Assembly: GCA_008632985.1 (NCBI GenBank)
Contig: QPGO01000128.1
Span: 186,001-237,659 of the forward strand
Reading direction: 5' to 3'
Length of the DNA: 51,659 bases
Source of the DNA: Psammoneis japonica
Taxonomy: Eukaryota
Positions 1 through 30,817 of the stretch are shown piece by piece (within the stretch, counting starts at the first letter, position 1; each line of letters opens with the position of its first letter). The translations under genes were made by a program, and so were the position numbers. The notes beneath the pieces are model-generated. The model was not told the DNA's origin, searched no databases, and saw only the letters and a program-made list of their open reading frames with translations.

Positions 1-136
1 TCCTGCCCAATGGTTGCGATGTGCCACTCTGCTGTGAATTCACAACGCAGCATGCATGCAGACAAAAGGTTGTTTTTGTCACGCCCTTTGTGACATTTAA
101 AGGCTGTAACACGTCGCCGTGACACACCAACTCTTG

Positions 137-1058
137 TCAGCAGCTGCATGTTGCACCGGGCTTTGCTGCTGGGGCTTGAACATTTCTTGCTTGACACGAT
201 CGTTTCTTGTGGAAAAAGAACATGGCCCCAATGGTGGCTGCACTTGACACGGCAACCACCACGGCAATGACTGCAGAATTGACTCCACCCGAATGTTCAT
301 CGGGACTCGTTGAAGGGAAAAATGTTGGTTCACACGAGGGAGAACTGGTGGGTTCCATGGTCGAAACACACCTGTTGGCCATTTTGTTGGGCTCACAGAT
401 GGTGTTTTTGCAGGTGCAACAAAAGGAACAAAACTGGAGGGTGATGTTGGAAAAAAGCTTGGAGGGTCAGTTCCCTCAACAACTTTTGATTCGACATGAA
501 AGGCTTCCAGCACATCGGTCAAGCCCGCTTCATTTGGCCTGTCCATGGGTTCGTCCAGATCAAAGTTGACTTCGTCACGATGTTCTCTTGGCAACCAACT
601 TGCATTTGTGTGAAACAATTTGTAAGATGCTGCACAATCCACTTCCAATGCCAGTTCCTGAAGTCCCCTGCTGGCAAGAGAGTGGGTCAAGGTGCGACGA
701 ATGCGTTCAACCCAGTGTGGTTCCATCCAGAGATGCCTCCGTGTGATTCCACCACGTCTGATTGAGAAACAAATGCTGTCACATTGATGCGGTCTTCAAC
801 TGCAATGTCAGGGGCACAGCCTGCCACCATGGATTCAAACATCTTTTTTTCCGTTTCATTGAAGGGACGCACATCTCCCATTTGGAGCTGCTGTTTGAAC
901 GATCCGCGGGGCCGCTGCACAAATTCAAAGGTTGGCACCACCGTTGGAGAGTAAGACGGTGTCGGTGACGGAGCCAAGGTCTGACTTTTTGAGTGCGAAG
1001 TGATGAAACCGATCAGAAAAACTCTGTTGAATAAAACGCGGGACAACATCTTGGCCAT
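137..1058 (-). pseudogene. Degenerate gene for a type-I membrane/secreted protein (signal peptide, PSPTPS linkers, extracellular domain, TM helix); may continue beyond the left edge
   Basis: ORF 687-1061 gives an N-terminal hydrophobic stretch then TLAPSPTPSYSPTVVPT. ORF 137-382 gives EPTSSPS..PSTSP, a TM segment (VIAVVVAVSSAATIGAMFFF) and basic HKKR. The reading frame is broken several times and the region nearly lacks TpA. Confidence 0.55.
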
Positions 1059-1555
1059 CAAAGAGAAAGGTTCACGATTCCTCCCTTTGGCTTGTTGGAA
1101 GTCGTGTCAGTTGGTGCAGTGGGGCAATCGTTTGCGATGCCAAAGTTGGGTCTCGGAGTGCGTCTCGGCGGTGCTTCACGGAGAGTGTGAGAGAGTTACG
1201 ATGAACGACGAACCACGACCATGTCACAGCGGGATGATGCGGATAATGGATGCGAACGCGAATCCAGAATCGGATCGAACTCACAATGCGCAGGGAGCGC
1301 AAATTGTGACGGCGAGAAGAAGGAAACGAGCCTTCTCAAAGTTATTTTATACGTAGTTGAATATATAATATACCGGCGTGATAAAGTGTCGATTTCGTTG
1401 CTTTATCATTGCAACCTGGTATTCCCTAACCAATAAAAAAAATCGCAACAGACTCAAAACCATCATCATCTTTAGATCGGTGTTGTTGCTGTTGTTATTG
1501 CTGTCGTCGTCGCCATACATACCTTACACTAACACTGCTCCACCCTCACACAATC

Positions 1556-2802
1556 ATGTCGTCACTACTTTTGGAAGATTCTCCTTGCGGCTTACCGCAC
1601 GAATTGTGGCATGCCATTTGCGAATATGTGGCAACCGAAGTTTCGGTGCTGTGTTCTCTGGATGCGACTTGCACTTATTTTCGACACCTTCTCACCGATA
1701 CATTTTGGAATGCATTGTCTACCCTAAAATTCGGAACGACACGGGGAAACAAGCGAGCGTATATTTCCGGCATGGCTTTGACTTGTTTGCCACCCACGAA
1801 ACAACAATACGACGGGGCGCTGGTTGGTGGAGATGTAAGCTCGCGAGCGGCATGCAGTGCGGCAAACAAGTCGATCGTGGCGATTGGTATTTATCCTCGA
1901 GCCCTTCGTGTTCGCGAAAACGATCGTACACATTATCCACTGCGCATCTTTTCTCCGAGAAAATGGAATGAATCGCTATTTCTATGGCAAAATGTATCAC
2001 TGGATGGTCCCTGTCTAGCGGTGGAGCTTGTGGGAGACGATGACGCTCCCTGTATTGTGTGTCAAACGTCTCGCTATGATTTATGGGCGTGTCGGGGCTC
2101 GGTCAAAACAAAAATAATTCTGCCCCACGCGGATCGTCCGATTCGAGCCATCAAGGGTTCCAATCGAGGCTTGGTGGTATTGCAGGACGAATGGCTGTGT
2201 TGGTTTGTCATGTCACACGGTGGTATTTTTGTACTGCAACATCACGTGTCGCGAGTGACTGGTTCCGACACGATTGGTTTGTTCAAGGACAAGATTTGTC
2301 ACGTGAGCTATAGCAGAGCCAAGCTTGGCAAATTGGTCGAGATGGATCCTTGGAAGAAATGTTTCAATTTGATTTGGATTTACCCCGGAATCGCACCTTT
2401 AGTTCTGGATGCGTATGCATGTCGGATCGGTACATTGTCGTGACGCCCCGACCCTTTTTGACCACTGATGTGATTCGAGTGTTTGACATTATGGACGGGA
2501 CTCTGTTGCGAACCATCGCCATGGACGACAACTCGGGTGAACACCCCAATTCATTCAACACTCTGTTGCATCCGCACATTGTCAATCCACACTTTTTAGT
2601 CACGGCAACCAAGTACGGTGTGGGCTTGGCGATTTATAATTTATGCACTGGTGCATGGGTCCGATCCATTGTGCACTCTTGTGAACACCAAGTGCATTCA
2701 CTCGTGCGCTTGCCGAGCTTTTCGTACCTGGCCTTTTTAGCCACCTATAACGGTGGTGATCAAGTGGTTTGGAAGTTTGAACAATGCTTCGAATTGGAGT
2801 AG
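1556..2802 (+). CDS. F-box-like protein with a C-terminal beta-rich region; one frameshift near 2325
   Basis: N-terminus LPHELWHAICEYV..LCSLDATCTYFRHLL..FW resembles an F-box motif. ORFs 1556-2443 and 2350-2802 are joined by restoring one base: the paralogue near 10520 reads aagctctggc where this copy reads aagcttggc. Confidence 0.65.
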
Positions 2803-3740
2803 TCGGAAACGAAAAACATGTGAGCTGGGATTGGGAAACGTGTCTTGTAGTGTCAGAGGAACGGCTTAAAATCTCTGCACACTAACTTCTGTAGTATGAA
2901 CTCTTTAAAGTTTATCGTGTCATCTTTTTAGCGGGATATTCTGATATAGCTAGCGAGAGAGTAGTGCAAGGCTCCGAGAGGCTAGGGCCCTAGAGAGTAG
3001 TGTAGCTCTACCCTATAGAGCTGGCTAGAGCAGAGTGTACGAGTAATTTGAAATTGGAACCTCCGTTCCGTACTCAGCAGTAGCGTCCGACAACTGTTTT
3101 CGTACAAAGCCCAGACGGCCCCTGGATTCTTTCTTGAGAAACACCGCATTGGGTCATGCTTTTGAGGTCGCTGTTGAGACGAGTTGCTGTTTGCCTCCCA
3201 CTCCCACTGGCATTTTGTCTCAACAACAAATGCACACCCAGCCTCTTTCTCTCTGTGCAAAGGCACATGGACACTGGTGAACAACGCCACTTTGATTCCA
3301 TGTGCGCCACAAGATCGGCCGCGGAGCTGTTGCTGCATTTCGCCCAAAAAGCAACAAGTGCATCAAGATTTTCCACTTTGCTTGAAAGTTGGTCTGTCAA
3401 GGCAGATGGGTGACACCATCTGTGGTGGGCTTTTGCTCTCAACAAAGAGTTTTTGGGGCAAGGCTGTCATCATCACCCACAAAGAGCAGCGCGGTTGTGA
3501 CGACGTTGCTGCTCTGGCAGCAGCAAAGAAAGGCTGCCTTGAGAGGGCACAGGCTGGCTAAAAAACAAGCCTCGTCAGTTGTCCAAATTCTGCAAAAAGC
3601 TCAGATTGACAGCAGAGGCATCAACAAGTTCAGCAACCCAGATGAAAGCACGGAACAAGAAAAAATGCCTGAAGTTCTTCGCGCAGGCTTCAGCTCTGTG
3701 CAGCATGTGTGCTGTGCTTCCTGCAGTGTGGCTGGTGCTC
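2182..3740 (+). repeat. Segmental duplication, copy A (partner about 10380-11890): F-box 3' half, intergenic DNA and the RSH 5' end
   Basis: Near-identical over 2182-2990 vs 10380-11170. Clearly homologous but increasingly diverged over 3085-3740 vs 11238-11890, e.g. gagaaacaccgcatt, gaggtcgctgttgagacgagttg and caagttcagc(a/g)acccag. Confidence 0.9.
3570..3740 (+). pseudogene. Decayed copy of the 5' end of the RelA/SpoT gene
   Basis: ORF 3579-3860 reads STSSATQMKARNKKKCLKFFAQASALCSMCAVLPAV; RSH at 11774 reads ISSSATQRAWRKRKRSKVLHASAAVIVCVALPVAV. Confidence 0.75.
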
Positions 3741-3979
3741 TTAACTTCAGCACAGCTCTTGCAGACATGGGAGTTCAAGCAACAACAATGGGCATTGGTT
3801 GTGCTGGTGTGCAGAGTGTTGTTTCATGGTCAAAAAACAGCAGCACGGATGACACAATGAAGAATCCTAAGTGGTGCGGAAGAAACAGGTTTTGTAAAAA
3901 CTTGCACCTCATTTTTTCATTGTCTGTCTTTGCCTGTGTGCTGTGGCTTTTGCAAAGGAAAATGCAGTTGTCATCCTCC

Positions 3980-4520
3980 CTTGGTTGGTTCCCAATGCCA
4001 CATTCATTTCTGTTTGACTGTGTGTGCACCTGTGGAGAATGTTGCAAAACAAAAGGGGGCAGCCTCACATCACCCAACAAAAATTTCAGGAGCTGTGGAG
4101 CTGCTCAGTTTGCCACCACAGCAGAACTCTGTGGAGCAATGCACACCCCTTGTTTTGGCAAATGACAACAAGAAAAGCAAGAAATGCTTTTGTTTGAACA
4201 GCCACAAAGGGGTTTTTTGTCATTTTGAATGACTGCAGTCAGTGCACAACATCATTTGCAGTTTGCAAGACATGCCCTCCTGTGCAGCATGCCCCACCTG
4301 CCCCTTTTGACATGGCTGGCCAGGATTTGTGGAGCATCAAAGTGAGAAAGAAACAAGAGCCAAAGGCAGCGACTCCCTGTTGTTGGTCACCAGCTCTTGG
4401 CAATGCAAAGGTTTGCAAATCATTGACAACAAGGACAGCACAGAGAAGCCACCACGGTGGCAGCTCGCCATTGTTTCAAAATGGTGAGTCTGAAGCAGTG
4501 GAAAGGCTTGGAGGAGAGCT
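3980..4520 (+). pseudogene. Decayed paralogue of the YkgJ-type cysteine-cluster gene at 22416-23279, in inverted orientation
   Basis: Frame-hopping peptides FDCVCTCGECCKTKG, EQCTPLVLANDN and MAGQDLWSIKVRKKQEPKAATPCCWSPALG match FDCTACGKCCKTKG, EQYASLVLENDN and MASQDSWNAEVRKPDDKQEPEAIPYWSPTLG. Confidence 0.85.
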
Positions 4521-5069
4521 CTTGTGTTTGTTTGGCATTGCTGTCAACTGCCATGCCATTGCTGCTCATTTGTGCCAAACTGGCATGCCAAGTGAGATCA
4601 AAGCCAGATGGCCAAGTGAAACCAAAAAACAAGTTTGCTGGGCATCATTTGTCCACCACTGGAGTTCATTGACTTGAGCTTGCATCACCACAACTGCACT
4701 GTCTGCTGCATCCTCAGCTTCTCCTGGATTTGAACATTGGGGAAAAGCTGTGGAGTCTTTTGGCTCTGCCCTCTCGAGAGTTGCCAGCTGAGTTTAGAGG
4801 GCAGCCACAATTTGAGCTCACAAAAAAACCTCTCCAGTGGCAGCCAGCCCAGCAGCTTGCACAGTGACAGGTCTTTCTTGGCAGGGGCAAGGCATGTGTG
4901 CCACACATGGCAAGAGAAAGCTCATCCTTTGCTGCATTGGATTGAGCTGCACAGCTGTCTGGTCACATTGAACAGGCACCAGAAGCAACAACTTGCCACA
5001 AGTCCTCTTGTGGAGTCACAGGCTCCCATTTGATGGGCACACAGCAAGAGTTGGTGGCAGCTCTTGATC

Positions 5070-6130
5070 CCCTTGGTTGGCTGCCTGCTCTTAAATTGCT
5101 GGTTGAGGGCTTGCAATTTGCAATGCAGACAAAATCAGTGGGGTTGTCAAAGGCCCAAACTCTTTGATGCAGCTGGGCTCTGCAGATGAGTCAACTGGCT
5201 GCTGCGTGTGTTCCCTGTGGTTGTTGCACCTTGCATGTTGCTGGCTCTAAAGGTGCTTTCTTTGAGTGGCTTTCATTGCTCTCAATGGCACATCTGTCAG
5301 GCTTTGCTGCAAGGGTTTGGCTGTGTCTTGTTCAGCACAGTTGTTGTTTCTCTTGCAGAAAAAGGACATGCCCTCAACAGCAGCCATGTCCTTTTTGACT
5401 TGGCAGCCAACCATGCACAACAATGACTGTGAAGCTGACTCTGCCTGAATGCTCAGCAGGGCTCAACAGGAAAAAGAACTTGGGGTCTACACAGCGGGAG
5501 CTGGTGGGCTCCAATGAGGGAGCCCCTGCTGCTGGGCAGCTGCCAGACTTCCTGATGACATTCTTGCTGGTTCATGGAGGGGAAGAAACTGGGCAATGGT
5601 GTTGGGGTGAAGTTTGGAGGGTTCTCATTTGGCAATTTTTTGCTCCACATGAAATGACTCAAAAACTGTGTGGCCCATGCCTCCAAAGCCCTTTCTTTAA
5701 GTTGTCCCTGCCAGCAAGAAAGAGAGAGGGTCAGGGCATGCCGGCCAAGTGCACTCAACCCAGCATCATTCCATCATCCATCCAGAGACACCCCCACACT
5801 TCCACCGCACATGTGATTGAGAAACAAACGCAGCAGTGTTGGTGCATTTTTTGCCACAACAATGAGGGTGGCACAGCCCATTCCATGACATGCCCAAATG
5901 TCTCTTTTTCTGTTTCTTTGCTCAAAGAAGGGTGCACATTGTCTGTCACATCTGGCTGCTGTTCATGTGATCCACGGGGCCATGTTGAGAAAAATTCAAA
6001 GGTTGGCTCCACTGTCACAGGGGACCAAGATGGTGACTGGGGGGTGGAGCCAAGGTCTGACTGCTTGACTTTGAAATGACAACAACATTTTGAAAACAAT
6101 GCAGTGCGACAACATGCTCTGACAGTGGCC
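5070..6130 (-). pseudogene. More heavily decayed paralogue of the membrane-protein gene at about 1-1058 (direct repeat)
   Basis: Shared blocks: atgcagacaaaa (56/5123), caatgactg..gactc..gaatg (266/5421), aaattcaaaggttggc (921/5992) and ggagccaaggtctgact (970/6046). Translation LGSTPQSPSWSPVTVEPTFEFFSTWPRGS matches LAPSPTPSYSPTVVPTFEFVQRPRGS. Confidence 0.85.
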
Positions 6131-6346
6131 GGCCTTGCAGGCGATTTGGACGTAAAGCGAATCTGCAAAGCCTTTAAAAAGTTAAGTTGCAATGGTGCCG
6201 TCCAAAATGGGAGGCGCGGATCGCACTGTTGGCCAATCGCCAAGCTTCAAAATATGTCAGACAGTCTTGTCATTCCGTCGAAAGGAGGTACCAGGTAGGA
6301 TTAAGGATAGCGATATATTTGTAAGGTATGAGGTGCTATTGTTTTC

Positions 6347-7989
6347 TTAGGAGAATGCGATGATTTGATACGCGGTGTTGCTTGCTAATGGCCACTGAGT
6401 CGCAGTTTGCCCCAGCGTAATGGCATGATTTTTGCGGCAATCGTCAAATTCTTTGCGACACTTTTCAAGGGCAACGTCCAAGTAAGTCCGCGAGCGCGGC
6501 AATGCTGGGTACAAAGCCTTCCGTATAGAGTTCACGAAGACGGTCCTTTTCGCAAGTAGCATCGAAAAACAGCGTGGACAACTCTGCCTCATTGAAGCTT
6601 CCGTCAGCGTTCAAGCCTGCCAAAAGAAGCAAGGTTGTGCGAGATCCCAGCCGCTCGACCAAGGTCCGGATAGTTGCCCTTGGTTTGTGTCAAATCAAAA
6701 CAATAAGCAAGGCGGATTGCGTGAAGGCACTCATCGAGGTGCTCAGGCTTTGAAAATCTGAAACTTTCGTTTTTCTTTCTCCATCCAAACCTACCCGGAA
6801 ACACACCGTCACAGGCAATTTTGATGCTGTCACTCTTCATCATGAGGCGTTCAAACCAGGGCAACAAAACGTGGATGTTGGAACAAGTGATTTTAGGCTG
6901 CACGATTCCAGCTTCAAGAAACTTTGCGACAATGATCCACTCGGACGGATATCCTCGGGAAACTCGACTTTCATTTCCTTTTTCTCCTTCATGTCGTGGG
7001 AAAACATGGCGTCAAAGTACTCACTCGCGTAACAAAGCACGGAGCTCGAATGGTACGATTTTTGATTTCCGACGACAACGGTGACATCTTTTCCCGTATC
7101 TTGTTTCGGCAATGAAGCTGCGGTCCCGTTCTTGGAGAAGAACGACACCAAATCCTCAAGGAACTTCTCCAAGCCAAATGAACCACTGAAAACCAACAAG
7201 TTGAAAATAGGTTCAGGGAGAGAGTGAGAGATAACAATTTCACTAAATCCATTGTCGGTTCAATATAACTTACCCTATAGCATGGTCCTGATTGCACGCA
7301 TCGCACCGTCTCCGCGTTTCATTCGCAAGATCTGAAGCAACGAGCTCGGCGAAACTTGGCACAGAATTGGCCGTGTAAAGAGAGCGAAGGCGGTCTTTTT
7401 TACAGAGAGAATTGAGAAAAAGTCTGGATAATTCAATCTCACCAAGTATGCCTTCCGCATTCCATCCCGCCATCAACGTCAGGGTAACTCGACTTCCAAC
7501 TCGGTGCCGCAAGGACCGAATACTCGCGCGTTTCGTTTTATGGAGATCAAACAGACAAGCAAGGCGGAATGCGCGGATGCACTCATCAATATCCTCAGAT
7601 TTCGAGCTATAAAAGGATCTGAAGCGGAAACTGTTTTCTTTCTCTACTAGCCGGGAGAACTTGTTCGGGTATACATTGTCACACGCTCTTTTGAGGCTGT
7701 CACTCTTCATCTCGAGCCGTTCAAACCATGGAAGCAAGAAATGCACATTATGGGTATAAATATGGGGCTGCGCAACGCCCGCTTCGAGAAACTTGGAGAC
7801 TTGACGCCATTCCGATGGGCGCTCGTTTGGAAAGTCGACTCTCATTTCATTCCCCGTGTCACCGGAGGAAAACAAGTCGTCGAAATACTTGCTCGCATAA
7901 CGAAGCATCGAACTTGAATGCAAGAAGTGTTTGTTACCGACCACAATCGTGACATCCTTTGTGATTTCTAAGCGGCTTGGTAGTGGCAT
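6347..7989 (-). CDS. Protein with two tandem BTB/POZ-like modules; intron 7273-7186; second module has about three frameshifts
   Basis: Both halves have KDVT.VVGN...HSSS.L.YAS.YFD..FS (BTB-like). Donor GG|GTAAGT at 7273 and acceptor TTTCAG at 7186 join ORF 7270-7989 in phase to ORF 6840-7199. ORFs 6604-6903, 6465-6662 and 6347-6592 continue the similarity to module 1. Confidence 0.75.
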
Positions 7990-8589: not shown

Positions 8590-10380
8590 GGTTTCAACCA
8601 CCAAAGCTTGTCCCTCCCTCTGGAAAGCTCTATGGTCGAGACAAAGAATTGAGTCTCCTTCGGGCTGCTTTCGACAAGCCAAGAAGGAGGAAACGAATGC
8701 CAATGATGACGAAGAATCTCCAGACAATACTACTCCTACAACTAGCAACATTATTTTTATTGGCGGATCGTCTGGTACCGGCAAATCGGCTCTGATACAG
8801 GCCGCGTTTCATGGTGTGGATGCACTCGAGGGATGCGGAAAGTTCGAACACAACAAGGGAAACGCAGCAGCTCCGCCGTTTTCGGCTGTGGTGCAGTGTC
8901 TATCGGAAGTGTGTGAAAACATGGCACGGCATGATGAGGAGGAATACGCCGGTATTCTTACAGAAACCATTCAGCAAGACGAGTTGGCCGTTCTCGTCAA
9001 TTTAGTTCCAAAACTGTTGATCGTTCTTCGTGATAACATCGACATACAGCAGCAGCAGCAGCAGCAGCACACTTATTCTGGACGGTCCAAGGATGATTTG
9101 GAACGGCTCAAAAGGCTCTTGTGTCTCTTTTTGCAAGCCATTGCTCTCGCCAAACGACCCCTCCTTTTGATACTGGACGATTTGCATTGGATGGATGAAG
9201 CATCTTGTGCGTTATTGAAATCCATTCTTTTCAATTCTCAAATCAAGCACTTGGTCTTTGTCGGATCCTTTCGCAATGACGAAATTGACAGTGACCAGCA
9301 CGTTCTTTCCAAATGGATCATGGACGACGTGAAAAAAAGAATGCAGAAATAGTACCCCCGTCCATTATTACACTCGAGCCACTCGAACAAGATGCCTTGG
9401 AACAGTTGCTTTCCGATTTGCTAAAAAAAGACGACAATGGCATTTCCGAATTGGCCAATGCCATTTACAGCCGCACACACGGCAAAATGTCTTTTTTGTG
9501 TTGCAGCTGCTCGATAATTATTTGTGTTCCATTCGTGGAAGTGGGATGTCACCAAAATACGCAGCAAAACCAATCTATCCGACAATGTTTTGGACATTGT
9601 ATCGGCAAGGATTGATCGCATCAGCGCGCAAGAATGGTCCGTTTTGAAAATTTGCAGCTGTATCGGATTTCGTTTTGACCGGACGGTGCTAATGCAAGTG
9701 TGCGAGGCGTTTCAAGATGAGGCCCTGGCGAATCCACAAAAAAATTTGGAAAGCGTTGTGGAACAAGCCTTGATTGAGCATGTTCGTAATGAGCGATATA
9801 AATTTGTTCACAATCGGTAAGCTATTCGTATTATCGTGTGCTCGGAAAAACCTGACTGTCTTGCATTGAAGAAGCAGCTTACAGTCTTGCCCGATATTCT
9901 TATGATCCATAGGTTACAACAGGCCGCTCTGAAACTCATCCCTGATAAAGAATCTCTTGCGAGATGTCACCTTACTATTGGAACCTGTTTGTGGGACGAG
10001 TATGGGTTGAAAAGTATCATTGCGAACGTCAAAGCACCTCCTGTCGAAGATGGTATTCTCTTTTTGTGTTGCGATCAGCTCAACTCGGGCAAGTCGCTGA
10101 TTGTGGATGACACATTCAAACTAGACCTGCTCCGTCTAAATCTTGCGGCGGGGAAACGGGCTGCCTCGTTCTCTGCTTTTCTCCCGGCCGTTGCATATCT
10201 ACAGAGTGCAGCCGGATTCATAGCGGATCGAGAGACGTTTTGGAAGAAGAGTTATACCCTGTCGTTGGAGTTGTTTACGTTGCTGGCAGAAATGAGTTAC
10301 AACGCCGCCAACACCGACGCTTGCAAGGACGCTGTAGACCAAGTCGTAAAGCATGCGAAATCCATTCAGGATGCCTTTCC
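8590..10380 (+). pseudogene. STAND-class/AAA_16 P-loop ATPase, frameshifted and 3'-truncated
   Basis: KLYGRDKE motif, Walker A GSSGTGKS, Walker B LLLILDDLHWMD, SFRNDE, RTHG, YKFVHNR and LNLAAGKRAASFSAF. Probable intron about 9817-9912. Several frameshifts. The sequence switches abruptly to the F-box duplicate at about 10380. Confidence 0.75.
9047..9069 (+). repeat. (CAG)n microsatellite encoding poly-Gln within the ATPase ORF
   Basis: cagcagcagcagcagcagcagca, translated QQQQQQQH. Confidence 0.9.
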
Positions 10381-15021: not shown

Positions 15022-15135
15022 GCGTGCGTCAATGCTTACAGGTCTTCAAAGCTTTGTCGGCCGAGCGGAATGAATTCGTCCTCTGGCGTCCGGCGAACGT
15101 TTGCTGAAGCGGATCAGCTTTTCGCTCGCTTTTCT

Positions 15136-19990: not shown

Positions 19991-20042
19991 GACGCCCTAA
20001 GGTGGATGACTTGTTCTGATCGTGCATACGCCGCTGTCCCAT
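19310..20042 (-). pseudogene. Decayed unknown gene whose readable 5' end lies just outside the TpA/CpG-poor tract
   Basis: ATG at 20042 (MGQRR...) is paralogous to 15235. Downstream broken frames read like a charged helical protein (KDPEEPSEQEAVQEMASKFKEARDKQ). Confidence 0.5.
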
Positions 20043-20391
20043 CTTCACAACTTCGCATGAATCATCATTGTCATCTTCTCTTCTTCGTGCAAAACGCAAC
20101 ACCTCTACAGAAAGAAATGGGCCAAATTGAAAATACCAGACGATCGACTCGTGTTTTGCGTACTTTCTAGTACTGTTTCTACTATGAAACGCCACCACAA
20201 GCGAAGACTGTTTTTTTTTCAATTTCGGCGGTCACAGCGCCGCACATACCGCAAAGAAACAGCCCAACCTGCTTCTGTATGCTTGTGTCTTGTGTGTAAC
20301 ATTACAATAATATAAGTCAAGAGAATATAACTCTTTGTTTGCCGCGAAGATCGAAATATCAAATTCGCGGTTGTGTCGTGCGTTGACCGAA

Positions 20392-22401
20392 ATGAGCAAT
20401 CATGAAGCATTGACCTTACCGAGACGACCGACTCCATTCTTACGAAAACCGCTGGCAGTTGTTCAACGGGAACAGCGACAAGAAGCACTTCGACAAAGTA
20501 GCACGGTTGGTAGTAATACTGATGGAGAAGAAGGTGGTGGTGATCACGTTCGATTAGCAAGACACTTGTCCTTGTTGGATTTAGTATCCATTGGTGTGGG
20601 AGGAACGATTGGATCGGGTGTGTTTGTATTGTGTGGATTGATTGCCAATGAATACGCTGGACCGGCAACCGTGTTGTCCTGGGCCATTGCCGGTGTTGCA
20701 GCGTTTTTGTCCGGTTGTTGTTATGCCGAGCTCAGTGGACGAATTCCGACTGCTGGTTCTTCCTATTCCTATGCTCATGTTAGTATGGGTGAATTGCCAG
20801 CCGTTGTGACGGCATCAATGTTGACGCTAGAATTTTTAGTTTCGGGAGCCGCCGTAGCGAGGTGCGTCATGTGACTGGGGATTGAGATTTGAGACGTTTT
20901 TCAACATGGGATTTGCTCACTCTTGTTTGCTATTTTAAGATCTTGGGGAGACAAGGTTGTGGAATGGTTACGTGTTGAGATGGAAGCGGGGGATTGGGTA
21001 GACACGTATTTAAATCCGGGTTGGGGGTTCAACCCAATGGCAATGGCGGTTTCAGCCGTCACGTGTGCACTGGTATACGGTGGGGTCCGCGAATCAAAGA
21101 TTGTAACAGACATTTTCACCTGGATGAAAACTTTATTGGTGGCATTCATGGCTCTCGGCGGTCTTGCGCTGATGAATCCTTCAAACTTGAAACCATTCGT
21201 ACCACCAGAGTTTGGGATTTCTGGTGTGATGCGTGGAGCAACTTCTTCGTTCTTTGGATACCTGGGATACGATGGCATTTGTTGCGTGGCTGGGGAGGCT
21301 AAAAATCCAACAGTCAACCTACCAAAGTCTGTCCTCATCACACTGGTAATTGTGACAGTTCTGTACATTATCGCTGCATTAGGTTTGGTGGGGATGCAGC
21401 ACTACACCGAAATCAGCCCCGAAAGCGCCTTTCCAGAGGCGTTTGCAGCAAACGGGGTTGAATGGGCTGCGCAACTTACAGCGGTAAGAAATACTACCAG
21501 TAGAATTGGGCAGAATCGCTCTGTCATGGAACGGTCGTCTAACGCATCTATTTACTACGGAACTCTACAGGCTGGAGAGATTATAACGTTACCAGTGGTT
21601 GTCTTGCTATCCTCTGTGCTGCAACCGAGATTGTTTTACGCATTGGCGTGGGACGGGTTTCTCCCACCGGTGTTTGGCAAGGTTGATTCACACGGAAACC
21701 TTCGAAAGGGAATATTAATCTCGGGGAGCTGCATGACGATACTGGCCGGGTTTGTGCCGTTTACGTATTTGGACGACTTTGTCAGTGCCGGGATTCTGAT
21801 TGCATTTTCCATTACCAATTCATCTCTTGTCTTGATGCGACGAGAGTCGCCAATGGAACGACCCTTTTTGTTGGAAAAGATGCTGTTGGTGTTTAGCTTG
21901 CTTTCCCTCTTGACTGGGTTGGTACTGAGACATGCCTCGTTAGAGACTGCTTTCGGATTGACTGTGGCAATGTGTTTTCTCGTGGCAACAACTGTTTGGG
22001 GTGCCGTTTTGGGATGCTCTTGTCCGAGAAGCATTGCCTTTGGCGGCGACACCACGCTGACTACCGACATTATTGACGATGCTGTGAACCAGCGATATTT
22101 TGAAACTCCTTGTGTCCCACTCATTCCGCTCCTGGGGATATTTACCAACTGGTACCTTGTCGCACAACTAGAGTATCTTGGGATTGTTCTATTGATCATC
22201 TATATCGCATTGGCGATTGTTCTGTATTGGATGTATGGGGCCAAACACAGCGTGGGGAACAACACCAACTGGAACCAGAGTGAGTACGAAACAGCAGATG
22301 CAGGAGAGATCGAAATGGATCAACTCGACGATGCTGAAGACGTGCAAACACAGTCCACAATGAATGGTAGCACGGCAGTGGCCGATACCGAATTAACTTG
22401 A
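20392..22401 (+). CDS. Cationic amino-acid transporter (APC superfamily); introns 20862-20939 and 21484-21570
   Basis: LVSIGVGGTIGSGVFV, CYAELSGRIPTAGSSYSY, FFGYLGYD, EAKNP, PRLFYALAWDG and FETPCVPLIP. GT-AG introns join the frames in phase. Confidence 0.93.
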
Positions 22402-22415
22402 GAGCGCGGCGACTT

Positions 22416-23279
22416 TTACTCTGACGGACTATCTCGCAGAAACTGTTTCTTGTTCCTCTCAAACATTTTGAGGCGTTGGTACGCTTCCTCTACTGATACG
22501 CCGTTTTGTGGCACTACGGAATCCATGTCTTCTGCTTCATCATCGGTAATGATTTGTAAGCCTTCGCATCCGCCAAGAGTTGGCGACCAATAGGGAATCG
22601 CCTCTGGCTCTTGTTTGTCATCTGGCTTTCTCACTTCAGCATTCCACGAATCCTGGCTCGCCATGACTTTGGTCCAAAAGGGATAGGTTGAACACTGAAT
22701 CGGCCGTGCCTCGTAGATACTGCATTGATTGCTCTCTTCCAAAAATACACAAGCTCCTCCTTGGTTGTTCTTCAAACGAATCCATTTCTTCTTTGGATCG
22801 TTGTCATTTTCCAAAACGAGGGATGCATATTGTTCCATAAAATCTTGTGGAGATAAATCTAGCAGTTTCGCAGCCCCTATAATTTCGTTGGGCGACATGT
22901 AAACGCTTCCTTTTGTTTTACAACATTTTCCACAGGCCGTACAATCAAACGGCAGAGTGGGACCAACTGTTGTGCTCGACATGAACCATGGTGACTCTTT
23001 CTCGATTTCTTTCAAATGAGAACGTTCCAGCGCCCGAGCTAGAGTTGCACTGTCATCTTGGTGACTGTCGTCCTCGTTGTGAGCTCTTTGGGTAACTCCT
23101 AATAATTGTCCTTTCTTGCTGTGTCTTGCTATAAGACTTGGTTTCCTGAACGAAGGACTAACGATTCTTGTCGGAACAAGTGCATGGGCACTGAATTTCC
23201 CTTGAGTCATCATAGTCAGAAGCAGCAGAGCTATCATCATTGATATGTATCCGACATTTATGCAGTGTCGACGATTCAT
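22416..23279 (-). CDS. YkgJ/FliB-type zinc/iron-chelating cysteine-cluster protein with an N-terminal targeting sequence
   Basis: FDCTACGKCC, CVFL, CSIYEARPIQCSTYPFW and CEG motifs; hydrophobic N-terminus. Confidence 0.88.
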   Translation of the reverse strand: MNRRHCINVGYISMMIALLLLTMMTQGKFSAHALVPTRIVSPSFRKPSLIARHSKKGQLLGVTQRAHNEDDSHQDDSATLARALERSHLKEIEKESPWFMSSTTVGPTLPFDCTACGKCCKTKGSVYMSPNEIIGAAKLLDLSPQDFMEQYASLVLENDNDPKKKWIRLKNNQGGACVFLEESNQCSIYEARPIQCSTYPFWTKVMASQDSWNAEVRKPDDKQEPEAIPYWSPTLGGCEGLQIITDDEAEDMDSVVPQNGVSVEEAYQRLKMFERNKKQFLRDSPSE

Positions 23280-23409
23280 TTGGTGCTATTGCTTCTGTAT
23301 TACGGTAGAATTATGGAAGCAAATTGTGGCGAGGTCGTGCGTCGTGCAGGCCGCCATTTGCCATTTTCTGGCTGCGGCGTGCGTGAGCGAAAAGGTTATT
23401 GCGGTGCAC

Positions 23410-25130
23410 AAAAACAGCCCACGCACACATGACTGACGATGGCTCTCCACTGGCAGGCAGACAGAGGCGAGGCAGGCGAGGCAGGCCCACATCACAGAAG
23501 GGGGTCGGGCGTCCATGCAGTGCTCTGCTCTCCACTGCAGCAGCGAGCAGTGGCCAGCTAGCTGCTTTCTAGCTGGAAGTGTCGTGGTGGTGCTGGGCAC
23601 CATCTGTGCATGATGCGACTGATCGTGCATGCATCGCTCATGCAGTGCAGTGCAGAGTCGTGCGCAGATGACCACAGTGCAGAAGTGCTCATGAGATCAT
23701 CACTGCAGAGTCTGTGTAAACTTCTCAGCATTCAGCACACTTCAGTTGGTGCAGTCAAAGCCATGTCCAGCAAAGAAGCCAAAAATGAAGCAGCAGCACC
23801 TTGTTGTGTTGCCTTTCAGCACAGCAGCAGCGACCACTGGCACTGACCAAGTGTTGCTCGTTTGAGCCACGCAGGAAATCTGGAAGAAGCATGTGATCAA
23901 GGAAAAACAAACAACTTTCAAGGAAGAAAAGGTCAACCTTCTCAAGCAAGAGTGTGCTGCTCTTGTCATGGAAGAAGTTCTTGGGGAGAGCCGCCACACA
24001 ACAACACCTGGGAAGAACTCGCGAAGAGCTGTGCAGCCCCATGGCAGAACACGCCTTTCTCAACAGGCATCCAGATGATTTTGTTGCCAATGTTTTTGGG
24101 CCAGCAGTGCTGTGGCATGCCTCATTTGAAAGTGCTGTCTGCTCTGATGTGAAAAGCAAGCGTGGCTGAAAAATCAAGTACAGCGCCACAGCTGCTTGTC
24201 TTCTTGGCTGCCTTGACGCAATGCACACCCTGCCATCAGATGTGCCAAAAAGAGCCCCAGTTGGCAGGGACCTTTGGCACAAACAGGAAGAAGAAAACCT
24301 GAGTTTTGCAAGGAAGAGAAACTTCCTCTAGTGCCAGGAGGATTCGCTGCCTGGGCTTGCTCATCTGCGCCAAGTTTGGAGCACAAGAAGAAACTCTCAA
24401 TGAGTGGTGGCCTTTGAAGCAAAACAGTCTTTCCCACAATGGACCTTTCCTGGGTTGTCTGTGCACATCTCTTCGCCAAAATGGGTGCATGCACAAATGT
24501 GGCACAACAAAGGAGAAAGTCAAGACTCTGCAAAAGACTTGTTTCCAGGAGGAAGCTGCAAACAATGACAATTTCCCCAAGGACATGGGAAGGAGGGAAT
24601 GTTGGGTGCGGTTGACACACTTGGCAAAAAGGGTTTTGAGACTGACAAATTGGAAGCAAAGAAAAAAGTCTTGCTCCTTTGCACTGTTGTGCTGACAGGG
24701 AAGAAACTCTTGAGGATGGTTTTGGGATTGCATTTCCATCAGCATGAGTTCACAAAAAGACATTTCTCGGTTTTTGGGGAGCTCTAAGGAGCTCTGCACG
24801 TGCTCAGCTGTGCTCTTGACAGTGCAAAACCAGTCTTCTCATGCCAGAAAAAGTCCTTTTAAATCATTTGTCAGATGCAATCACTTTGGCTGGCAGGCAC
24901 AAGAGTTTCCTCATTTGTCACTGCTGCTCTCAAACCTGCAAAATGGGCAACACTCCACCGTGGGTGCTTGCACTCAATTTTGTCACTCACCTTCCATGCT
25001 GCTGTGGACACAGCCTTTTGAGGGTGCACCCAAGTCTTGTTCACCTTCCGGCCCATTTCTGGATCCACGCTTTGCACTCTTGCATGCTCAAGGGCGTTTC
25101 TCAAAGATTTGTGGTGGAATCGTCACTTGC
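23410..25130. other. TpA- and CpG-depleted hypermutated tract
   Basis: About seven TA found by eye in about 1.7 kb. It contains broken coding-like frames and the 5' part of the urea transporter relic. Confidence 0.88.
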
Positions 25131-25500
25131 ATTTACCGGGTCTGGCAGCCCTTGCCTTTATCGGGTCTTCAATTGGAGCCGCATCAGGCCTCATGCTTGG
25201 CGTTGATTTTTCAGGAGTCGCGATTGGATTGTGGGGTTTCAACTGTGCCTTGACGAGTGTTCCTCACGCACTCCTAACAAGCGGTTGTGCTGTCCGCCGG
25301 CGGTGCCGCTGCCACTGTGGCTGTGTTTGGAGCGCCCAAAGTCATCCTTGGAGGGTGGAGCGCACCCTATAGTATCTTACATTGCCCTTCCGCACAACAA
25401 TGTCGGGATGCTACTTACTGAAGGATGCAGTTCCCGGTCTGCTTCTCGCAAGAATCCGCACTATAGCCGGAAGCATGTGTTCCAAAAGTATCTTCAGTAG
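24800..25500 (+). pseudogene. Fragmentary UT-family urea transporter gene (C-terminal part)
   Basis: TPPWVLALNFVT, LKGVSQRFVVESS and PGLAALAFIGSSIGAASGLMLG..GLWGFNCALTS, followed by an LTLP-like and PGL..KNPH tail. Multiple frameshifts and deletions. Confidence 0.75.
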
Positions 25501-25587
25501 AATTTTTTTCTGTTAGCTCTTATCATAAATTAGCACAATCTATTGCATGGTGACGCCAAAGCGCAGCGCCGTCCCACATCTTTTTGC

Positions 25588-27628
25588 TCAGACATACATG
25601 GGATGTGTCATAACGTTCTTAATCCATGGCTCGATAACCAGTGGAGTGAGCAGGTAAAAAATGATTGCCATGAAAATGGAAATCGGGAGGGCGGGCAACG
25701 CATTGCGGTACACCGATAGCAAAACTAGCTTCCCCCCGAGTCCAGCCAAGATCACAAGCATGCAAGCTGCAAAGGTAGCAAAGCTGTACATGGCTCCCTT
25801 GGCAACAAGAACAGAATAGAAAATGAAGTCTCCCTGTAATTTGAAAGAAACGATAGTGTGAGACGAGAGGTTGAAACAGTCCATGACTGACTACATGTCA
25901 AACACAATGTTGCTCACAAGTCCAGGTTTAATCGAGTTGCCCACTCCGCCTTGCTCGCCATCACCTTCCATTTCAGCAAATACTATTCCTTGACGATCCA
26001 CCCACAAAGTCCGTTTTGGAGCACCAAGTCGATCCCTTTCTAGATATAGTTGCTTGCGTCCTCTCGTTATCCGCTCAACGGTTCCTCCAACGGGTGGCAA
26101 TCGTACCGTCACGTCGGTTCTCAATAGTCGGGGTGTGGGATTCTCGGGAATATCAATCGCTGGTGCGGATGCAGCCTGATGTTCCGCTTCCTCGTCGGCT
26201 CGACTCAAAAGCGTGTATGTTGTGTCGACACGACCCTTTGACTGTTCACGGCGTTTTGATACGCTGAAAGATCGTCCAGTAGTCATGGCAATCACGGGGA
26301 GATTGTATACTCGTGCAATCGCCAGGGGCATGACGGCGGCGCGTACTACACTTGGTGCATCACTATTTGAAACTTCGGGTACACCCGCAGTAATGGTAGT
26401 CGCCGAGGCGTAGCTGCCATCTTGACTCTCCCGGGTATCTGTTAAAGGCACAGCTGCAGGTGGTGGAGAAGGTGCTGCTGCATTGTCAGTAGAATGTAGC
26501 GATGAGGGTGCAGAGTTGCTGTTGCCAGTACCATTTCGCGGAACTCCTGGTCTCCTCGCTTCAGGTGGAAGTTCCAGTTCGTAAAGCGATCCAGGCATCT
26601 CGGGAGTATCCTTCTTGGACATGAGATTTACCAGCTGTGCCATCAACGAAAAGGAGAAACAAGGAAGGGACTATGAGCGCCAGAAAAAACAACATATAGC
26701 AACCGGATTGATAGAGAATCACTGGCACTTACCGCCTTTAGGGGACCACAAGGAGTCAAGACAGCGCATAAATCATAGCAGGCCAACATGAATAAGATCG
26801 TCCATGTTGTCCACTCATCCAAGTGCGCCCACTGCCACACCATAATAACAGAGGTCGCAACGAGATAACATTGCGTAATGTAGCTCGGAATCCCAAAGGA
26901 CCAGAAAATACTTAGCACTCCGACAATGCAAAAGTTGAATGCCGTAAAAACAAATGATACAACATCAATCGGCAGCTGATACTTGTCCACCGCCATCTAA
27001 AGAGGGCAAAGACGAGTGCAGCAGAATGAGGAGTATGAAGCGACAACGACCTTGTGTGCCTGCTGTACCAGGCAGAACTCTCGTGTTTTATGTACCTTGA
27101 AAACAGTCCCACCCCACAGTCCCAACATTGTCAAAGACCAATAAATCATGTATCCAATCATGAATTTCATGCACCTCTTTTTGTAGCACAACACCATGAC
27201 AAAGATCATGCAGCAAATCACAGACACCATGACGAGCGGATTATTGGCCAGAGAGAGTGCAGGCAAAATCAGTGAAACAGAAACTTTAAAAAGAAAACAA
27301 GCCAGAAAAAGAGACAAGGTGCGCAGTAAGTCCCAATTCATCCAGAAGAGCAGAGAGCAGTGTTTATATATCACGACATCACTAGAAACATACCTGGCTT
27401 TACAATCGCATGATACGAGGACGAACTATAAAGCAGCTCTGCAACAGACGTTTCACAAAGCAGCTTTGCAACTGACATTTCATTCTCCTCATCTTCCTCA
27501 TCGGAGCCGTCCTCCGATGACAACTCATCCTCAAAGCTTTCGTCATCTTGATTCTTTGTTGTGGATAATGTCAGTGTCTTGTATTGTTCGCCGCTGCGAC
27601 CGGCGGTACCCTGAGCGTGGGCGCTCAT
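25588..27628 (-). CDS. PSEN: Presenilin (gamma-secretase catalytic subunit), multi-exon, possibly degenerate
   Basis: YD motif LACYDLCAVLTPCGPLK, GL|GDFIFYSVLV across an intron, and PALPISI. Acidic N-terminus. Four apparent GT-AG introns. Confidence 0.88.
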
Positions 27629-27699
27629 CGTTGATTTCAATCTGCTCCTCACGACTCCTCACGAGACATGAACCTACCGCGGTTCGCTTATTGCGTCCA

Positions 27700-30600
27700 C
27701 GATTGAAATTTTGCGCTTGGTGCGGAGGGCGAGCGAGCGAATGAATCGACACTGCTGCTTGCTTCCACCTTCCCAACGTGGGCTGGGACGTGATGACCAC
27801 CTGCTGCCAATGGTCACCACTTTTCCAGTGCCACCGCCCCTTTCTTCCCATGCATGCTTGTTGGCACAAGATGAGCCATCAGATCCGATGTGAGACACAA
27901 TGGAGAGTGATGACCGAGAAGATGCGACACTCAGCCTTCTCATCAGCTGCCACACAGAGTCGATGAGGGTGTGCCTTTGGGTGGATGTTCAACAATGAAA
28001 AGTGGCTAAAAGGAGTTTTGCTGGCTGAAGTGCTGGTCTGGTTTGATGGCAACTCATCACTGACATGGGCACTCTTTGTGTGTTTGACAAGGGCAAACCT
28101 TGGGCCAGGTGTTGAGCACAGCAAGAGCGATGTGTCGGCTGGGACTGCATGTGGAGAATTCACTGGGACAGTCAACATTGGCTGGGATCATGTGTCACTT
28201 GCCATGGGTTTGAGAGGCACTCTTGCTCCACCATGAGCCTGGAGTCATGAGGCTTTGCAAGTGCAGAGTCATTGTCATGTGAGCCGCTCTCCAAAAAGCC
28301 ATTGTGGTGCAGGCTGTGTGTGTGCTCCATGGCCACTGTCTGTGTCAGTCGTGCACCAGCCCCTTGTGGCATCAATCTCTTGTAAAACCACCACATCAAC
28401 AGCTGACGTCATGGGGCCCTGCTCCAGGCCCCCCTGTCTCTGCTCTGCACCTGGGGCAGAGGAAAGTGTTTGCACAAGTTGATGAAGCTGTTTTGCAGGC
28501 TGGCTTGACATGCTTTGGAAAGTGACAGCAGAGCAGCTGAGCATGAGAGCCCAGCTGGTGGAGAGACATTGAGTGCCAACCCAGGCTTTGTGTCTTTCCC
28601 AGAGCTCCAAGAGCGGCCAGAGCCTTTTCAAACACTTTGATCTGCTCATTGTGTGCAGTGCAGCGTCGAACAACAATCTGCCACTTTAGTTGAAAAGTGG
28701 GGTGGATCACAAACAAGAAAATCACATGTGTGGTGGCAAAGTGGGTGCATGCCCAGATGCAACAGAGAGTTTTCAAACTTTCAGCTGGGGCATCAAAATC
28801 AGAAATCTGGCATCTGATGCAGCACACATGGTGGAAGCCAGCAACCACCAGCACCACAAATTGGCCCTGCAACAGAGCCACAAAAACAAGATTGAATCAA
28901 GATGGGGTGATGTTGCCAGTGGTTTGATGTGCTCCCTCCATTGTGGCATTTGCTTGTGGGTTGCATCTGCCTCCCATGGGCTTCATCTGAGTGCCACAAT
29001 TGCTCTTGTTGCATCTTGGAGAATTCTGCCATGAATTCAGCACTGTGGTTGCACACAACCTCACTTGGCCATGCACACCTGCATGACCAGGTCTGCTCCA
29101 TGACACTCAGCACAACATCTGCTTGTTTTGCAGACACTTCCAGTCACAGTCACTGCCCACACTTGCAAAATGTCTTTTCCATGTGATCATCCAGTTGGCA
29201 GGAGCCTCTGTCAAATCTGCGCACATGCTCCATTTGGCACACACATGGAGTGCACTGCACACATCATGCCAGGCCCCAACAACAGATGTGCTGGGCCATG
29301 GAGGAGATTTTGGTGCGTGCCTGACCTGGATGACACAGCAAGTCTCTGTTGTGTCATGAGCCTGTGCTGACCTGCACCATTGCATGGCATGACCTCTGAA
29401 ACCTCCCCATGTGTGACACACCTCCTTTGCACAAGCATTTGAACACCGCCCTTGAGCATTTTCAATGTGAACTTGGGTGCTCTGTCAATTGCAATGGCCT
29501 CAAAATTGTTGCAAACTTCTTGTGCATGATGCACTGGAGTTTCTGTTGGCATCTCATGACACCACTCAGTCAGCTTGGTTGGGCTGCAATGACTGGGGCA
29601 CTGCAATTTTGTCCTCACAGCACATCAATTGCCATGATGACTCTCCTTCTTGGCCTTTTGCTGCTCCTTTTGGAGGTGGTGAGAGCCAGTGGGTGGCATC
29701 ATCCATGTCAAATGCCTTGTGCGGGGGTCAAGATCTGTCAAGTGGAGGCTCATGGTGTGTGCTGTCAGCTGTGGTGTGGCTTGTCCTTTGTCTCCAGGGA
29801 TGTTGTGAGCTGGAGATCCTGTGCGGCACAGAGATTTGCCATGGTGCAAGATCTGCCCCTGCTGCTGCTGCTGCTGCTGCCAATGACTGTCACACCATGA
29901 GTGTGATTGCAGGTTGTGGCATCATGGCATGAGTGCCCTTGCTGCAGACTGGGGTGTTGTTGTTTGTGAAGTGCTTGTGTGCCCCCTTGTGTTGCCATCC
30001 ATTGATGGATGGCAGGTTGGTCAGCTCAATGTCCAGGGGCCACAACCATCCATCAATTGAGTCAAAGGTCACCAAGATCAGAGTGCATCTTTCCACTCTT
30101 TTCCTTTGAGTGCAAGTGCGAACATTTGAGCTGACCAGTTGGCTGATCACTTTCACAACAGTCGTCACCCCCGCGACAATTCCCACGTGATGTTTCCCCT
30201 CCTCATTGCTGCACTTGCTTCTTGTTGCTGGAGAAATTCACCATTGTGTCTGGCTGTAAGAAGAGGCAATCTTGCACTCCCCTTTCCTGCCAGAGCACAT
30301 GTCAGAACAGAGCGAACAGCAGCAAGATGATGTTGTTTTGAGCCAATTGCCCGGAAGGTGTTCACACACACATTTTGTGGTTCAGTGTGGCTAAAAAAGC
30401 CAGCACTGTGATGGCACAGTCAAGCTCAACCCAGTCTGATCTGTCACTGCCTGTCATGCAAGTTTCCAGTGGAAGATGGCACGTCTTCCTGCTGCTCCAG
30501 GGTTTGTGCAGAAATCTTTTGGTTCTTGCTTGGACACCACCATGGTGCGCCCCACCCCCCTCTGTTATTGCTTGTTGTCTTCTCTCCATGTGCGGTTCAA

Positions 30601-30700
30601 CGAGGAGATGGTGTGCTGCTCAGATGAGGTGGATTGTCACTTGCCGTCCTTGTGGAACACCCAGATTGTTGCACTGGCCCAAAAGTGGCACGTCATCCGT
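27700..30700. other. TpA- and CpG-depleted hypermutated tract containing the Gypsy relic
   Basis: About six TA found by eye in about 3 kb. CG is nearly absent from about 28000-30100. Confidence 0.9.
28700..29600 (-). mobile_element. Relic of a Ty3/Gypsy LTR-retrotransposon integrase
   Basis: Broken frames give EWCHEM (Zn-binding, cf. EWYHE), AWHDVC, EQTWSCRCAWPSEVVCNHSAEFMAEFSKM and NPQANATMEGAHQTTGN. These resemble Gypsy rve motifs W..RYP.P..V.YD.G.EF and NPQANA..ER.HQT.GN. Confidence 0.8.
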
Positions 30701-30817
30701 TTTAGAGCCTGCGGCCTCCAAGGCCCTTTTCTTGCTCTTCTTTGGGCCTCTTTTGCAGCCTGCAATGAAGAGATACGCGCTCACATTTTTTGCCTCAAAA
30801 ATTTTTCACCAGGGACC

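Follow-up and report, generated by a model that had tools for sequence, protein, structure and literature searches.

What could erase one dinucleotide almost wholly from kilobase-sized islands of a genome and leave the neighbouring sequence normal? The question is raised by a 51,659-nt stretch of the diatom Psammoneis japonica (assembly GCA_008632985.1, contig QPGO01000128.1, positions 186,001 to 237,659 of the forward strand), which was analysed as a whole and is referred to here as the window. An earlier note, made from the letters of this DNA, had picked out five tracts that almost lack the step TA (TpA), proposed that TpA had been turned into TpG or CpA within them, and ascribed this change to a second A:T>G:C process acting beside the decay of methylated CpG. 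Our analysis of composition, paralogous copies and read-derived contigs bears out these points and modifies what had been said of the trigger, the specificity and the content of the tracts (Table 1). We consider it likely that the islands have been rewritten by TpA hypermutation like that of the alga Bigelowiella natans, overlaid by methyl-CpG decay and set by the local state of the island.

The five tracts are truly depleted of TA, to a degree that chance does not approach. In sliding windows of 500 nt, the observed/expected ratio (o/e) of TA was 0.00-0.13 inside the tracts (0-4 TA per window), compared with 0.3-0.9 outside them (10-40 TA per window), and the coordinates first noted for the tracts were right to within ~10-100 nt. 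Tract cores pooled to 11,074 nt contained 35 TA (o/e 0.05), 175 CG (0.25), 1288 TG (1.76) and 1199 CA (1.83), against outside ratios of 0.59, 1.02, 1.19 and 1.19, respectively, in a reference of 38,184 nt from which a repeat array at 43.0-45.4 kb was left out. At the outside density, ~460 TA would be expected in the tracts (binomial P = 6e-151). Pyrimidine-purine steps made up an equal share of dinucleotides inside and outside (24.4% and 24.6%), so the TA and CG lost were offset approximately 1:1 by the TG and CA gained, as transitions predict. GC content was 50.0% in the tracts and 47.1% outside. The longest run free of TA spanned 1569 nt (28688-30256, in tract 5), whilst ordinary intergenic DNA retained TA, for example at 15001-16000 and 35751-36750.

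The borders of the tracts set the loss of TA apart from that of CG. To the left of tract 2, TA was dense up to 3103 and the next TA stood at 3559; at the left border of tract 3, TA was dense up to 17622, followed by a lone TA at 17750 and by none before 18419. Within tract cores the CG o/e fell to 0.03-0.2 in sliding windows, yet the CG-free cores sat 100-600 nt inside the TA-free tracts, leaving margins without TA that were rich in CG (17654-17839, 23313-23663, 27690-27789 and 30566-31260). In tract 1, TA was nearly gone and CG was largely retained. Among the ancestral steps recovered from paralogues, as described below, TA was also lost more fully than CG (0/32 compared with 9/55 kept, P = 0.023). 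The loss of TA is ahead of the loss of CG, and wider. The latter is explained by deamination of 5-methylcytosine (5mC), which is established; since TA loss outreaches the CG-free cores and tract 1 lacks TA but holds CG, a second A:T>G:C process is needed beside methyl-CpG decay.

Modified bases can give systematic miscalls on some sequencing platforms, and one rival explanation is that the tracts are an artefact of sequencing, base calling or assembly where DNA is heavily modified. Three sequencing runs, all from one sample and study, were available for this locus, and contigs built from one of them (run X1, word (k-mer) depth ~52-65) carried the letters of tracts 3-5. They differed from the window at three positions over 17186-19330, three over 19304-26155, none over 27599-29482 and six over 29456-31000. 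The read check that the earlier note had called for therefore went in favour of the tracts (0-6 differences per contig), making an assembly or consensus artefact unlikely. Three features suit true divergence better than miscalling: insertions, deletions and transversions relative to paralogues; disagreement between TG and CA in the two copies of one repeat; and two allelic differences within tract 3, both of them CA/CG alternatives. The first two are not predicted by caller error. We give an artefact of any of these kinds practically no weight.

The direction of change was read from paralogous copies within the window, recovered by BLAST of sequence recoded as purines and pyrimidines, as ordinary BLAST only half found them, with the intact genes taken as ancestral-like for polarising. 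The example pairings of the earlier note, 15138 with 19948 and those falling in 11334-11911 and 3132-3760, held. The latter belong to a duplication (10380-11911 and 2183-3760) that spans the left border of tract 2. Its control part outside the tract (2183-2960) showed 50 differences in 749 bases (29 transitions and 21 transversions), whereas 3132-3800, inside the tract, showed 169 in 550 bases (127 transitions and 42 transversions). The gene for a CxxCxxCC-domain protein (22416-23285) and its fragment in tract 2 (4010-4432) likewise showed 99 differences in 362 bases, comprising 75 transitions and 24 transversions. Ancestral TA was kept at none of 32 places in the tract and had become TG or CA at 24 of them, as against 22/25 kept in the control (P = 7e-13), and only one new TA had arisen in the tract copies. 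Ancestral CG was kept at 9/55 places and had become TG or CA at 37, as against 34/39 kept in the control (P = 6e-12). Double changes from TG to CA accounted for 13/77. In the aligned part of the CxxCxxCC-domain copy, called YkgJ in the earlier note, tyrosine codons had changed from TAY to TGY in four of five cases, in agreement with the tyrosine-to-cysteine replacement reported there. The change runs from TpA to TpG/CpA and from CpG to TpG/CpA.

All four transitions were raised several-fold over the control, with TpA and CpG as the hot steps. With strands pooled, A>G affected 22 of 51 A at TpA and 81 of 387 elsewhere (P = 0.001), where the earlier note had stated beforehand that a lack of such enrichment would tell against it. 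The specificity for TpA that it proposed held as an enrichment and not as a restriction. At non-TpA positions, A>G was more frequent before a pyrimidine (53/169) than before a purine (28/218; P = 1.5e-5); C>T was more frequent at CpG (32/94) than at non-CpG positions (38/297; P = 1e-5) and, among the latter, more frequent in TCH (17/80) than in VCH (21/217; P = 0.011). GC-biased gene conversion, which would favour A:T>G:C in every context and raise GC, fails on this evidence: G>A and C>T matched A>G and T>C in frequency, GC content was as given above and context dependence was strong.

Error-prone patch repair, for which polymerase eta had been put forward in the earlier note, would start from T:G mismatches left by methyl-CpG deamination, which recruit mismatch repair and the polymerase and lead to miscopying of A:T at WA. 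Such repair would suit both the sharing of islands by TA loss and CpG decay and the rise of all four transitions, but A>G was no more frequent after a 5' A (35/152) than after a 5' C or G (46/235; P = 0.44), and transversions at A:T were few (30, compared with 117 transitions). TA loss also extends beyond the CG-depleted cores and into the CG-bearing tract 1, and the change in B. natans is, in the sections of the preprint covered, TpA-only without C>T. We therefore do not favour the polymerase and regard this explanation as very unlikely.

A repeat of ~800 bp held by tracts 1 and 2 (141-1006 and 5283-6082) shows when the change took place. Both copies were free of TA, and 204 transitions and 85 transversions separated them. 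At 32 steps one copy read TG and the other CA, compared with 84 concordant steps, and tract 1 had kept CG at 23 places that read TG or CA in tract 2. Discordance of this kind is predicted where the same ancestral TA or CG is resolved independently, and together with the kept CG it implies that TA and CG were still present in the element at the time of copying and that each copy was mutated in situ afterwards. The two copies have mutated independently, after duplication.

This timing bears on the idea that foreign or retro-copied DNA was already poor in TA on arrival, either through donor composition or through ADAR-like hyper-editing of RNA before reverse transcription. That the B. natans targets described in the preprint are integrated viruses, and that Pfam gave no origin for tracts 3-5, would accord with it. 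Against it, fragments of host genes whose intact paralogues in the window carry TA were converted, the two repeat copies mutated after duplication, and TA loss passes element-like borders into flanks of normal CG. ADARs favour a 3' G, whereas the 3' neighbour preferred here is a pyrimidine. Arrival in a TA-poor state is thus extremely improbable.

What, then, is targeted? The recognisable content of the tracts is duplicated DNA, extra X1 contigs overlie tract 3, and diatoms encode DNMT4 enzymes that may, according to the parts of the source covered, be related to the fungal enzyme RID (PMC9998398). These observations would suit a process like RIP (repeat-induced point mutation), whereby duplication is sensed through homology and mutation strikes both copies. 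Yet a duplicate of ~780 bp (2183-2960 and 10380-11155, 93% identity) was unmutated in both copies, and the border of tract 2 ran through the duplicated stretch. Each gene-fragment pair had a single mutated member, the parents at 10380-11911 and 22416-23285 being intact, and old tandem paralogues with a BTB/POZ domain on the minus strand (6490-7092 and 7340-7960, ~63% DNA identity, 392/629 columns) showed symmetric substitutions and no hypermutation. Furthermore, RIP makes TpA, which is destroyed here. A RIP-like process consequently has a very low probability. Because the non-tract duplicate and the old BTB pair were untouched and one copy per pair was mutated, duplication as such is not the trigger or target. 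The association with repeats drawn in the earlier note therefore stands in that tract content is partly repeated, and falls in the RIP-like sense.

Common to the tracts was instead non-genic content that is at least partly repeated, namely the repeat of tracts 1 and 2, the extra contigs over tract 3 and the gene fragments of tract 2, and the intensity of mutation climbed inward from the edge of tract 2. Runs tests for strand clustering of TG against CA gave z of -1.6 to +1.2 in the tracts, no different from 13 control stretches, and gave no sign of single-strand bursts. The pattern resembles changes that built up slowly over a whole domain and on either strand. We infer that targeting depends on the state an island is in locally, the simplest version of which is a silent or methylated chromatin domain.

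On the reading that we prefer, the tracts would be discrete non-genic islands, at least partly repeated, including the repeat of tracts 1 and 2, the probable dispersed repeat of tract 3 and host gene fragments captured by tract 2. After their arrival they would have been rewritten in place by two context-specific transition processes. The first, which amounts to A>G after T when either strand is read, would turn TpA into TpG or CpA, would be saturated and would reach slightly beyond the second, which would be the ordinary decay of methylated CpG to TpG/CpA. Islands would be targeted for their local state (most simply, chromatin that is silent or methylated), not for having been duplicated. The first process may be the work of a TadA/ADAT2-like deaminase acting on DNA with a 5'-T preference, converting T-A to T-I, which is read as G, and the same enzyme might also underlie the weaker C>T excess after T. 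In tRNA, the natural substrate of TadA/ADAT enzymes is A34 preceded by U33, making this one known family that acts on A after U. It is favoured because of this substrate, because one ADAT2 acts on both bases, A and C, in DNA and prefers its C after a 5' T, and because a TC excess is seen here; we put this identification forward tentatively, as a possibility short of an expectation.

Since TpA is its own reverse complement, 'A after T' and 'T before A' are inseparable, and A>G after T equals T>C before A in sequence. A TET/JBP-type dioxygenase that oxidizes T in TpA (to 5-hydroxymethyluracil (5hmU) or 5-formyluracil) and 5mC in CpG (to 5-formylcytosine), with mispairing giving T>C and C>T, would fit this symmetry. 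Both losses, and their occurrence in the same islands, would follow from a single enzyme class that recognizes a 5-methylpyrimidine followed by a purine, and the TG-to-CA double changes fit unstable CG/TA intermediates. Base J and the 5hmU of dinoflagellates also favour T in TpA. The two losses are separable, however, as TA was lost without CG in tract 1 and in the margins, and the B. natans data, in the sections of the preprint covered, show no accompanying C>T; we therefore judge a dioxygenase improbable.

Several points weigh against TpA hypermutation set by island state. The change was not confined to TpA, with non-TpA A>G and non-CpG C>T several-fold above the control, and transversions and indels were raised in the tract copies as well; part of the raised change at non-TpA and non-CpG positions could come from age, relaxed constraint or misalignment, the alignment with the paralogue being indel-rich deep in tract 2. 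The control holds an open reading frame (ORF) in both copies and may, through selection, understate neutral divergence. The polarised spectrum comprises ~900 aligned bases, drawn from the two paralogue pairs of tract 2, together with one pair in which two tracts are compared with each other. The sample of run X1 is likely to be the source of the assembly too and is not an independent strain. No deaminase gene was found by Pfam among the 43 long ORFs of the window, and the ADAT2 protein examined in the sections covered of PMC10354150 preferred GAA, not TA, for adenine.

Table 1 Positions within the window of the TA-depleted tracts, their recognisable pieces and the copies used for comparison
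Feature	Position	Strand	Description
Tract 1	1-1342		Truncated by window start; 7 TA and 57 CG in 1-1250
Repeat copy in tract 1	141-1006		Aligns to 5283-6082 in tract 2
Tract 2	3104-6152		CG-free core 3683-5741; 9 TA and 31 CG in 3150-6150
Tract 2 piece: mutated upstream region and 5' end of RelA/SpoT homologue (RSH) gene	3132-3760		Paralogue alignment
Tract 2 piece: mutated CxxCxxCC-domain gene fragment	4010-4432		Paralogue alignment
Tract 2 piece: repeat common to tracts 1 and 2	5283-6082		Alignment
Tract 3	17623-19997		CG-free core 17840-19416; copy of 15138-15304 at right edge
Tract 4	23313/23398-25133		CG-free core ~23664-24958
Tract 5	27690-30565		CG-free core 27962-30118; TA-sparse tail with normal CG to ~31260
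Non-tract part of duplication	2183-2960	+	Compared with 10380-11155; internal control, not hypermutated
Unmutated paralogue of 2183-3760	10380-11911	+	Small ORF, intergenic DNA and RSH gene start; ancestral-like reference
RSH gene	11768-14071	+	Pfam HD_4, RelA_SpoT and TGS
Intact CxxCxxCC-domain gene	22416-23285	-	Source-like paralogue of 4010-4432; Pfam PF03692, E = 2.5e-13

The content of the tracts could be recognised in part. Tract 2 was a mosaic that included gene fragments. In tract 3, the summed depth of X1 contigs reached 191 over 17671-18337 against a baseline of ~64, with loose contig ends at 17688, 17734, 17742, 19807 and 19902 and joints within 18867-19347. Because other X1 contigs overlie parts of this tract and break off near both of its borders, it is probably a dispersed repeat. 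Pfam was searched with 106 stop-free tract fragments of >=70 aa in addition to the 43 long ORFs of the window. None of the 106, whatever the frame, reached the gathering cutoff; about a dozen matches were at chance level (E = 0.003-0.05), including the two from tract 4 (Competence, E = 0.0034; KilA-N, E = 0.043), and no integrase, reverse-transcriptase, transposase, viral or transposon family appeared among these sub-threshold matches. The label of retrotransposon relic that the earlier note had attached to tract content is accordingly not supported by any reverse-transcriptase or transposase family among the matches of the 106 fragments. Its case of an integrase motif changed from EWYHE to EWCHE holds for the letters, with EWCHE present at 29567 on the minus strand, whilst the integrase label is unconfirmed, no such family having matched among these fragments.

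A protein search with the tract 1 ORF at 100-795 (minus strand) returned 98 candidates, none at E <= 0.001, and protein similarity between ORFs of tracts 1 and 2 was weak. In purine/pyrimidine-recoded BLAST among the five tracts, whose statistics are invalid for a two-letter alphabet, only the repeat of tracts 1 and 2 was prominent and the remainder was noise. Long spurious ORFs, up to ~230-260 aa and in several frames, ran through tracts 1-5 because TAA and TAG cannot occur in them, and gene callers would probably over-predict genes there.

Other genes of the window matched Pfam families for Ras, ribosomal L6e, mTERF, TANGO2, BTB and amino-acid permease proteins, alongside the plastid-type RelA/SpoT homologue. 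Among the best 120 relatives of the latter protein, all nine that carried an organism name were diatoms, with identities of 62-73% (Nitzschia, two Cylindrotheca, Bacillariaceae sp., Odontella, two Thalassiosira, Chaetoceros and Epithemia). The genes thus mark the DNA as eukaryotic and as that of a diatom, not of Bigelowiella. A small ORF without a Pfam match was intact in both copies of the unmutated duplicate (2314-2802 and 10685-11089, 93% DNA identity), which suggests a real gene.

Run X2 behaved like RNA, its contigs lying over genes only (25832-27394). These contigs omitted pieces of 66-147 nt with CT..AC ends, that is GT..AG introns of minus-strand genes, and a piece of ~99 nt within the RelA/SpoT gene (13344-13444), and could serve for annotating exons. 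The run gave no cover in the bins of tracts 3-5, a blank that is not counted as evidence of silence. Over a Laminin_G_3/concanavalin-like gene (16103-17209), contig depth was 2-3 times the baseline (15670-17670), and many variant contigs differing at dozens of places were found there in both runs. This gene represents either a multi-copy family or strongly diverged haplotypes.

The array left out of the outside reference is a tandem repeat of a 408-bp unit in 4.5 copies (43185-45310, 91% matches) with nested sub-repeats of 84 and 15 bp. It lies within a 600-aa ORF without a Pfam match, with minus-strand ORFs at 42931-44733 and 44709-45332. Its plus strand contains 15.5% A, and its TA o/e of 1.05-1.2 and TG/CA values of ~0.7 are the opposite of those in the tracts. 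The array probably encodes a repetitive protein rich in Gly, Tyr, Lys and Ser, with its TA contributed by Tyr codons.

The evidence at hand is one 52-kb window and ~900 polarised bases, and the generality of the process, its link to chromatin and the enzyme responsible are put forward as proposals. A process that removes one dinucleotide almost wholly from kilobase islands, counter to the usual GC-to-AT bias, is otherwise described in one 2026 preprint. If our reading is true, such mutation is no peculiarity of a single lineage or of inserted viruses, it can strike host-gene copies that have come to lie at a wrong site, and the mechanism could be dissected in a group with genetic tools, methylome data and many genomes. 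In tracts of this kind, relics of transposons and genes escape homology searches and spurious ORFs are inflated, TGA being the one stop codon left; estimates of mutation spectra or insertion ages would also be biased by them.

The finding is not categorically new, as the same kind of mutation has been described in another alga. In B. natans, Mettrop et al. (bioRxiv 10.64898/2026.01.13.699255, April 2026) report TpA-specific hypermutation of integrated DNA from nucleocytoplasmic large DNA viruses (NCLDV) and virophages. In the sections of that preprint covered here, 231 of 302 nuclear point mutations in mutation-accumulation lines fell in two integrated viral regions, one NCLDV and one virophage. 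All but one (230/231) of these were A>G or T>C (virophage 20/20, NCLDV 210/211), each at TpA, and arose at a rate of ~6e-7 per site per generation, ~1000 times that of the rest of the genome, in some lines only. The same source describes 124 genomic clusters in which 1-kb windows combine a low Rho_TpA with a high Rho_CpA+TpG, and proposes an ADAT2-like protein as the leading candidate. By those Rho thresholds, 11 of 51 1-kb windows pass here, among them three in a row at each of 3001-6000 and 28001-31000 and two in a row at each of 18001-20000 and 23001-25000, whereas none of 918 windows from control loci, mostly bacterial, do so.

The earlier note had known of no description of such a process. 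The B. natans preprint overtakes that statement in general, whilst a term search of its main text found mention of neither diatoms nor CpG, leaving the statement standing for diatoms as far as that text goes. In the literature searched, neither TpA loss nor A>G hypermutation was found reported for diatoms, and the present tracts are, as far as those searches show, the first sign of TpA hypermutation in this group. In the parts covered, a mutation-accumulation paper on P. tricornutum describes a GC-to-AT bias and mentions no hotspot (PMC6604790). A metagenome scan with an alignment of diatom RSH proteins gave 80 loci, of which five were diatom-like (62-66% identity, ~27 kb) and contained no TA-free windows, too little DNA for inference on other diatoms.

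Fungal RIP and methyl-CpG decay each share part of the pattern. As in RIP, heavy transition mutation is local to non-genic or repeated DNA, leaves a dinucleotide scar and destroys reading frames. RIP acts by C>T mainly at CpA and makes TpA, whereas here TpA is destroyed (o/e 0.05) and A>G is prominent; and RIP is triggered by duplication and strikes all copies, whereas here non-tract duplicates are spared and one copy per pair is mutated. Methyl-CpG decay accounts for the conversion of CpG to TpG/CpA in tract cores (37/55), in keeping with diatom methylation of CpG in transposable elements through DNMT5, whilst many diatoms also encode DNMT4 (sections covered of PMC9998398). It cannot remove TpA, the loss of which is faster and wider here than that of CG. 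Amphioxus BjADAT2 accepts A as well as C in DNA for deamination and, like TadA-derived editors, prefers C in a 5'-TC context (sections covered of PMC10354150). That preference matches the excess of TCH over VCH here, and the GAA context reported there for adenine differs from the TA context of the tracts.

The closest likeness is to B. natans. Both systems convert TpA to TpG/CpA on both strands within discrete regions of an otherwise normal genome, leave a footprint of successive 1-kb windows in which Rho_TpA is low and Rho_CpA+TpG high, and affect many sequences without annotation. The host here is a diatom (Stramenopila) and not a chlorarachniophyte (Rhizaria). A broader proposal, which we offer as speculative and would not expect to hold in full, is that TpA-directed DNA editing is an old arm of genome defence across the Stramenopila-Alveolata-Rhizaria (SAR) group (Rhizaria and Stramenopila), in diatoms aimed by chromatin state instead of foreign origin or duplication and working alongside CpG methylation, possibly through one TadA/ADAT-like nuclear deaminase acting on A and C after a 5' T. 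The tracts are known from their footprint alone, whereas the B. natans process is known from de novo mutations. The raised non-TpA A>G (81/387) and non-CpG C>T (38/297) here, set against TpA-only change there, compare an old relic with de novo data and are not like-for-like. Overall, the tracts differ from the known case in their near-total erasure of TpA (o/e 0.05, compared with a Rho of 0.45 for the B. natans NCLDV region in the sections covered), in a concomitant loss of CpG that the available preprint text does not mention and beyond which TpA loss extends, in recognisable targets that are host gene fragments and a repeat rather than the viral genes described there, and in the weaker NAY and TC contexts that accompany TpA.

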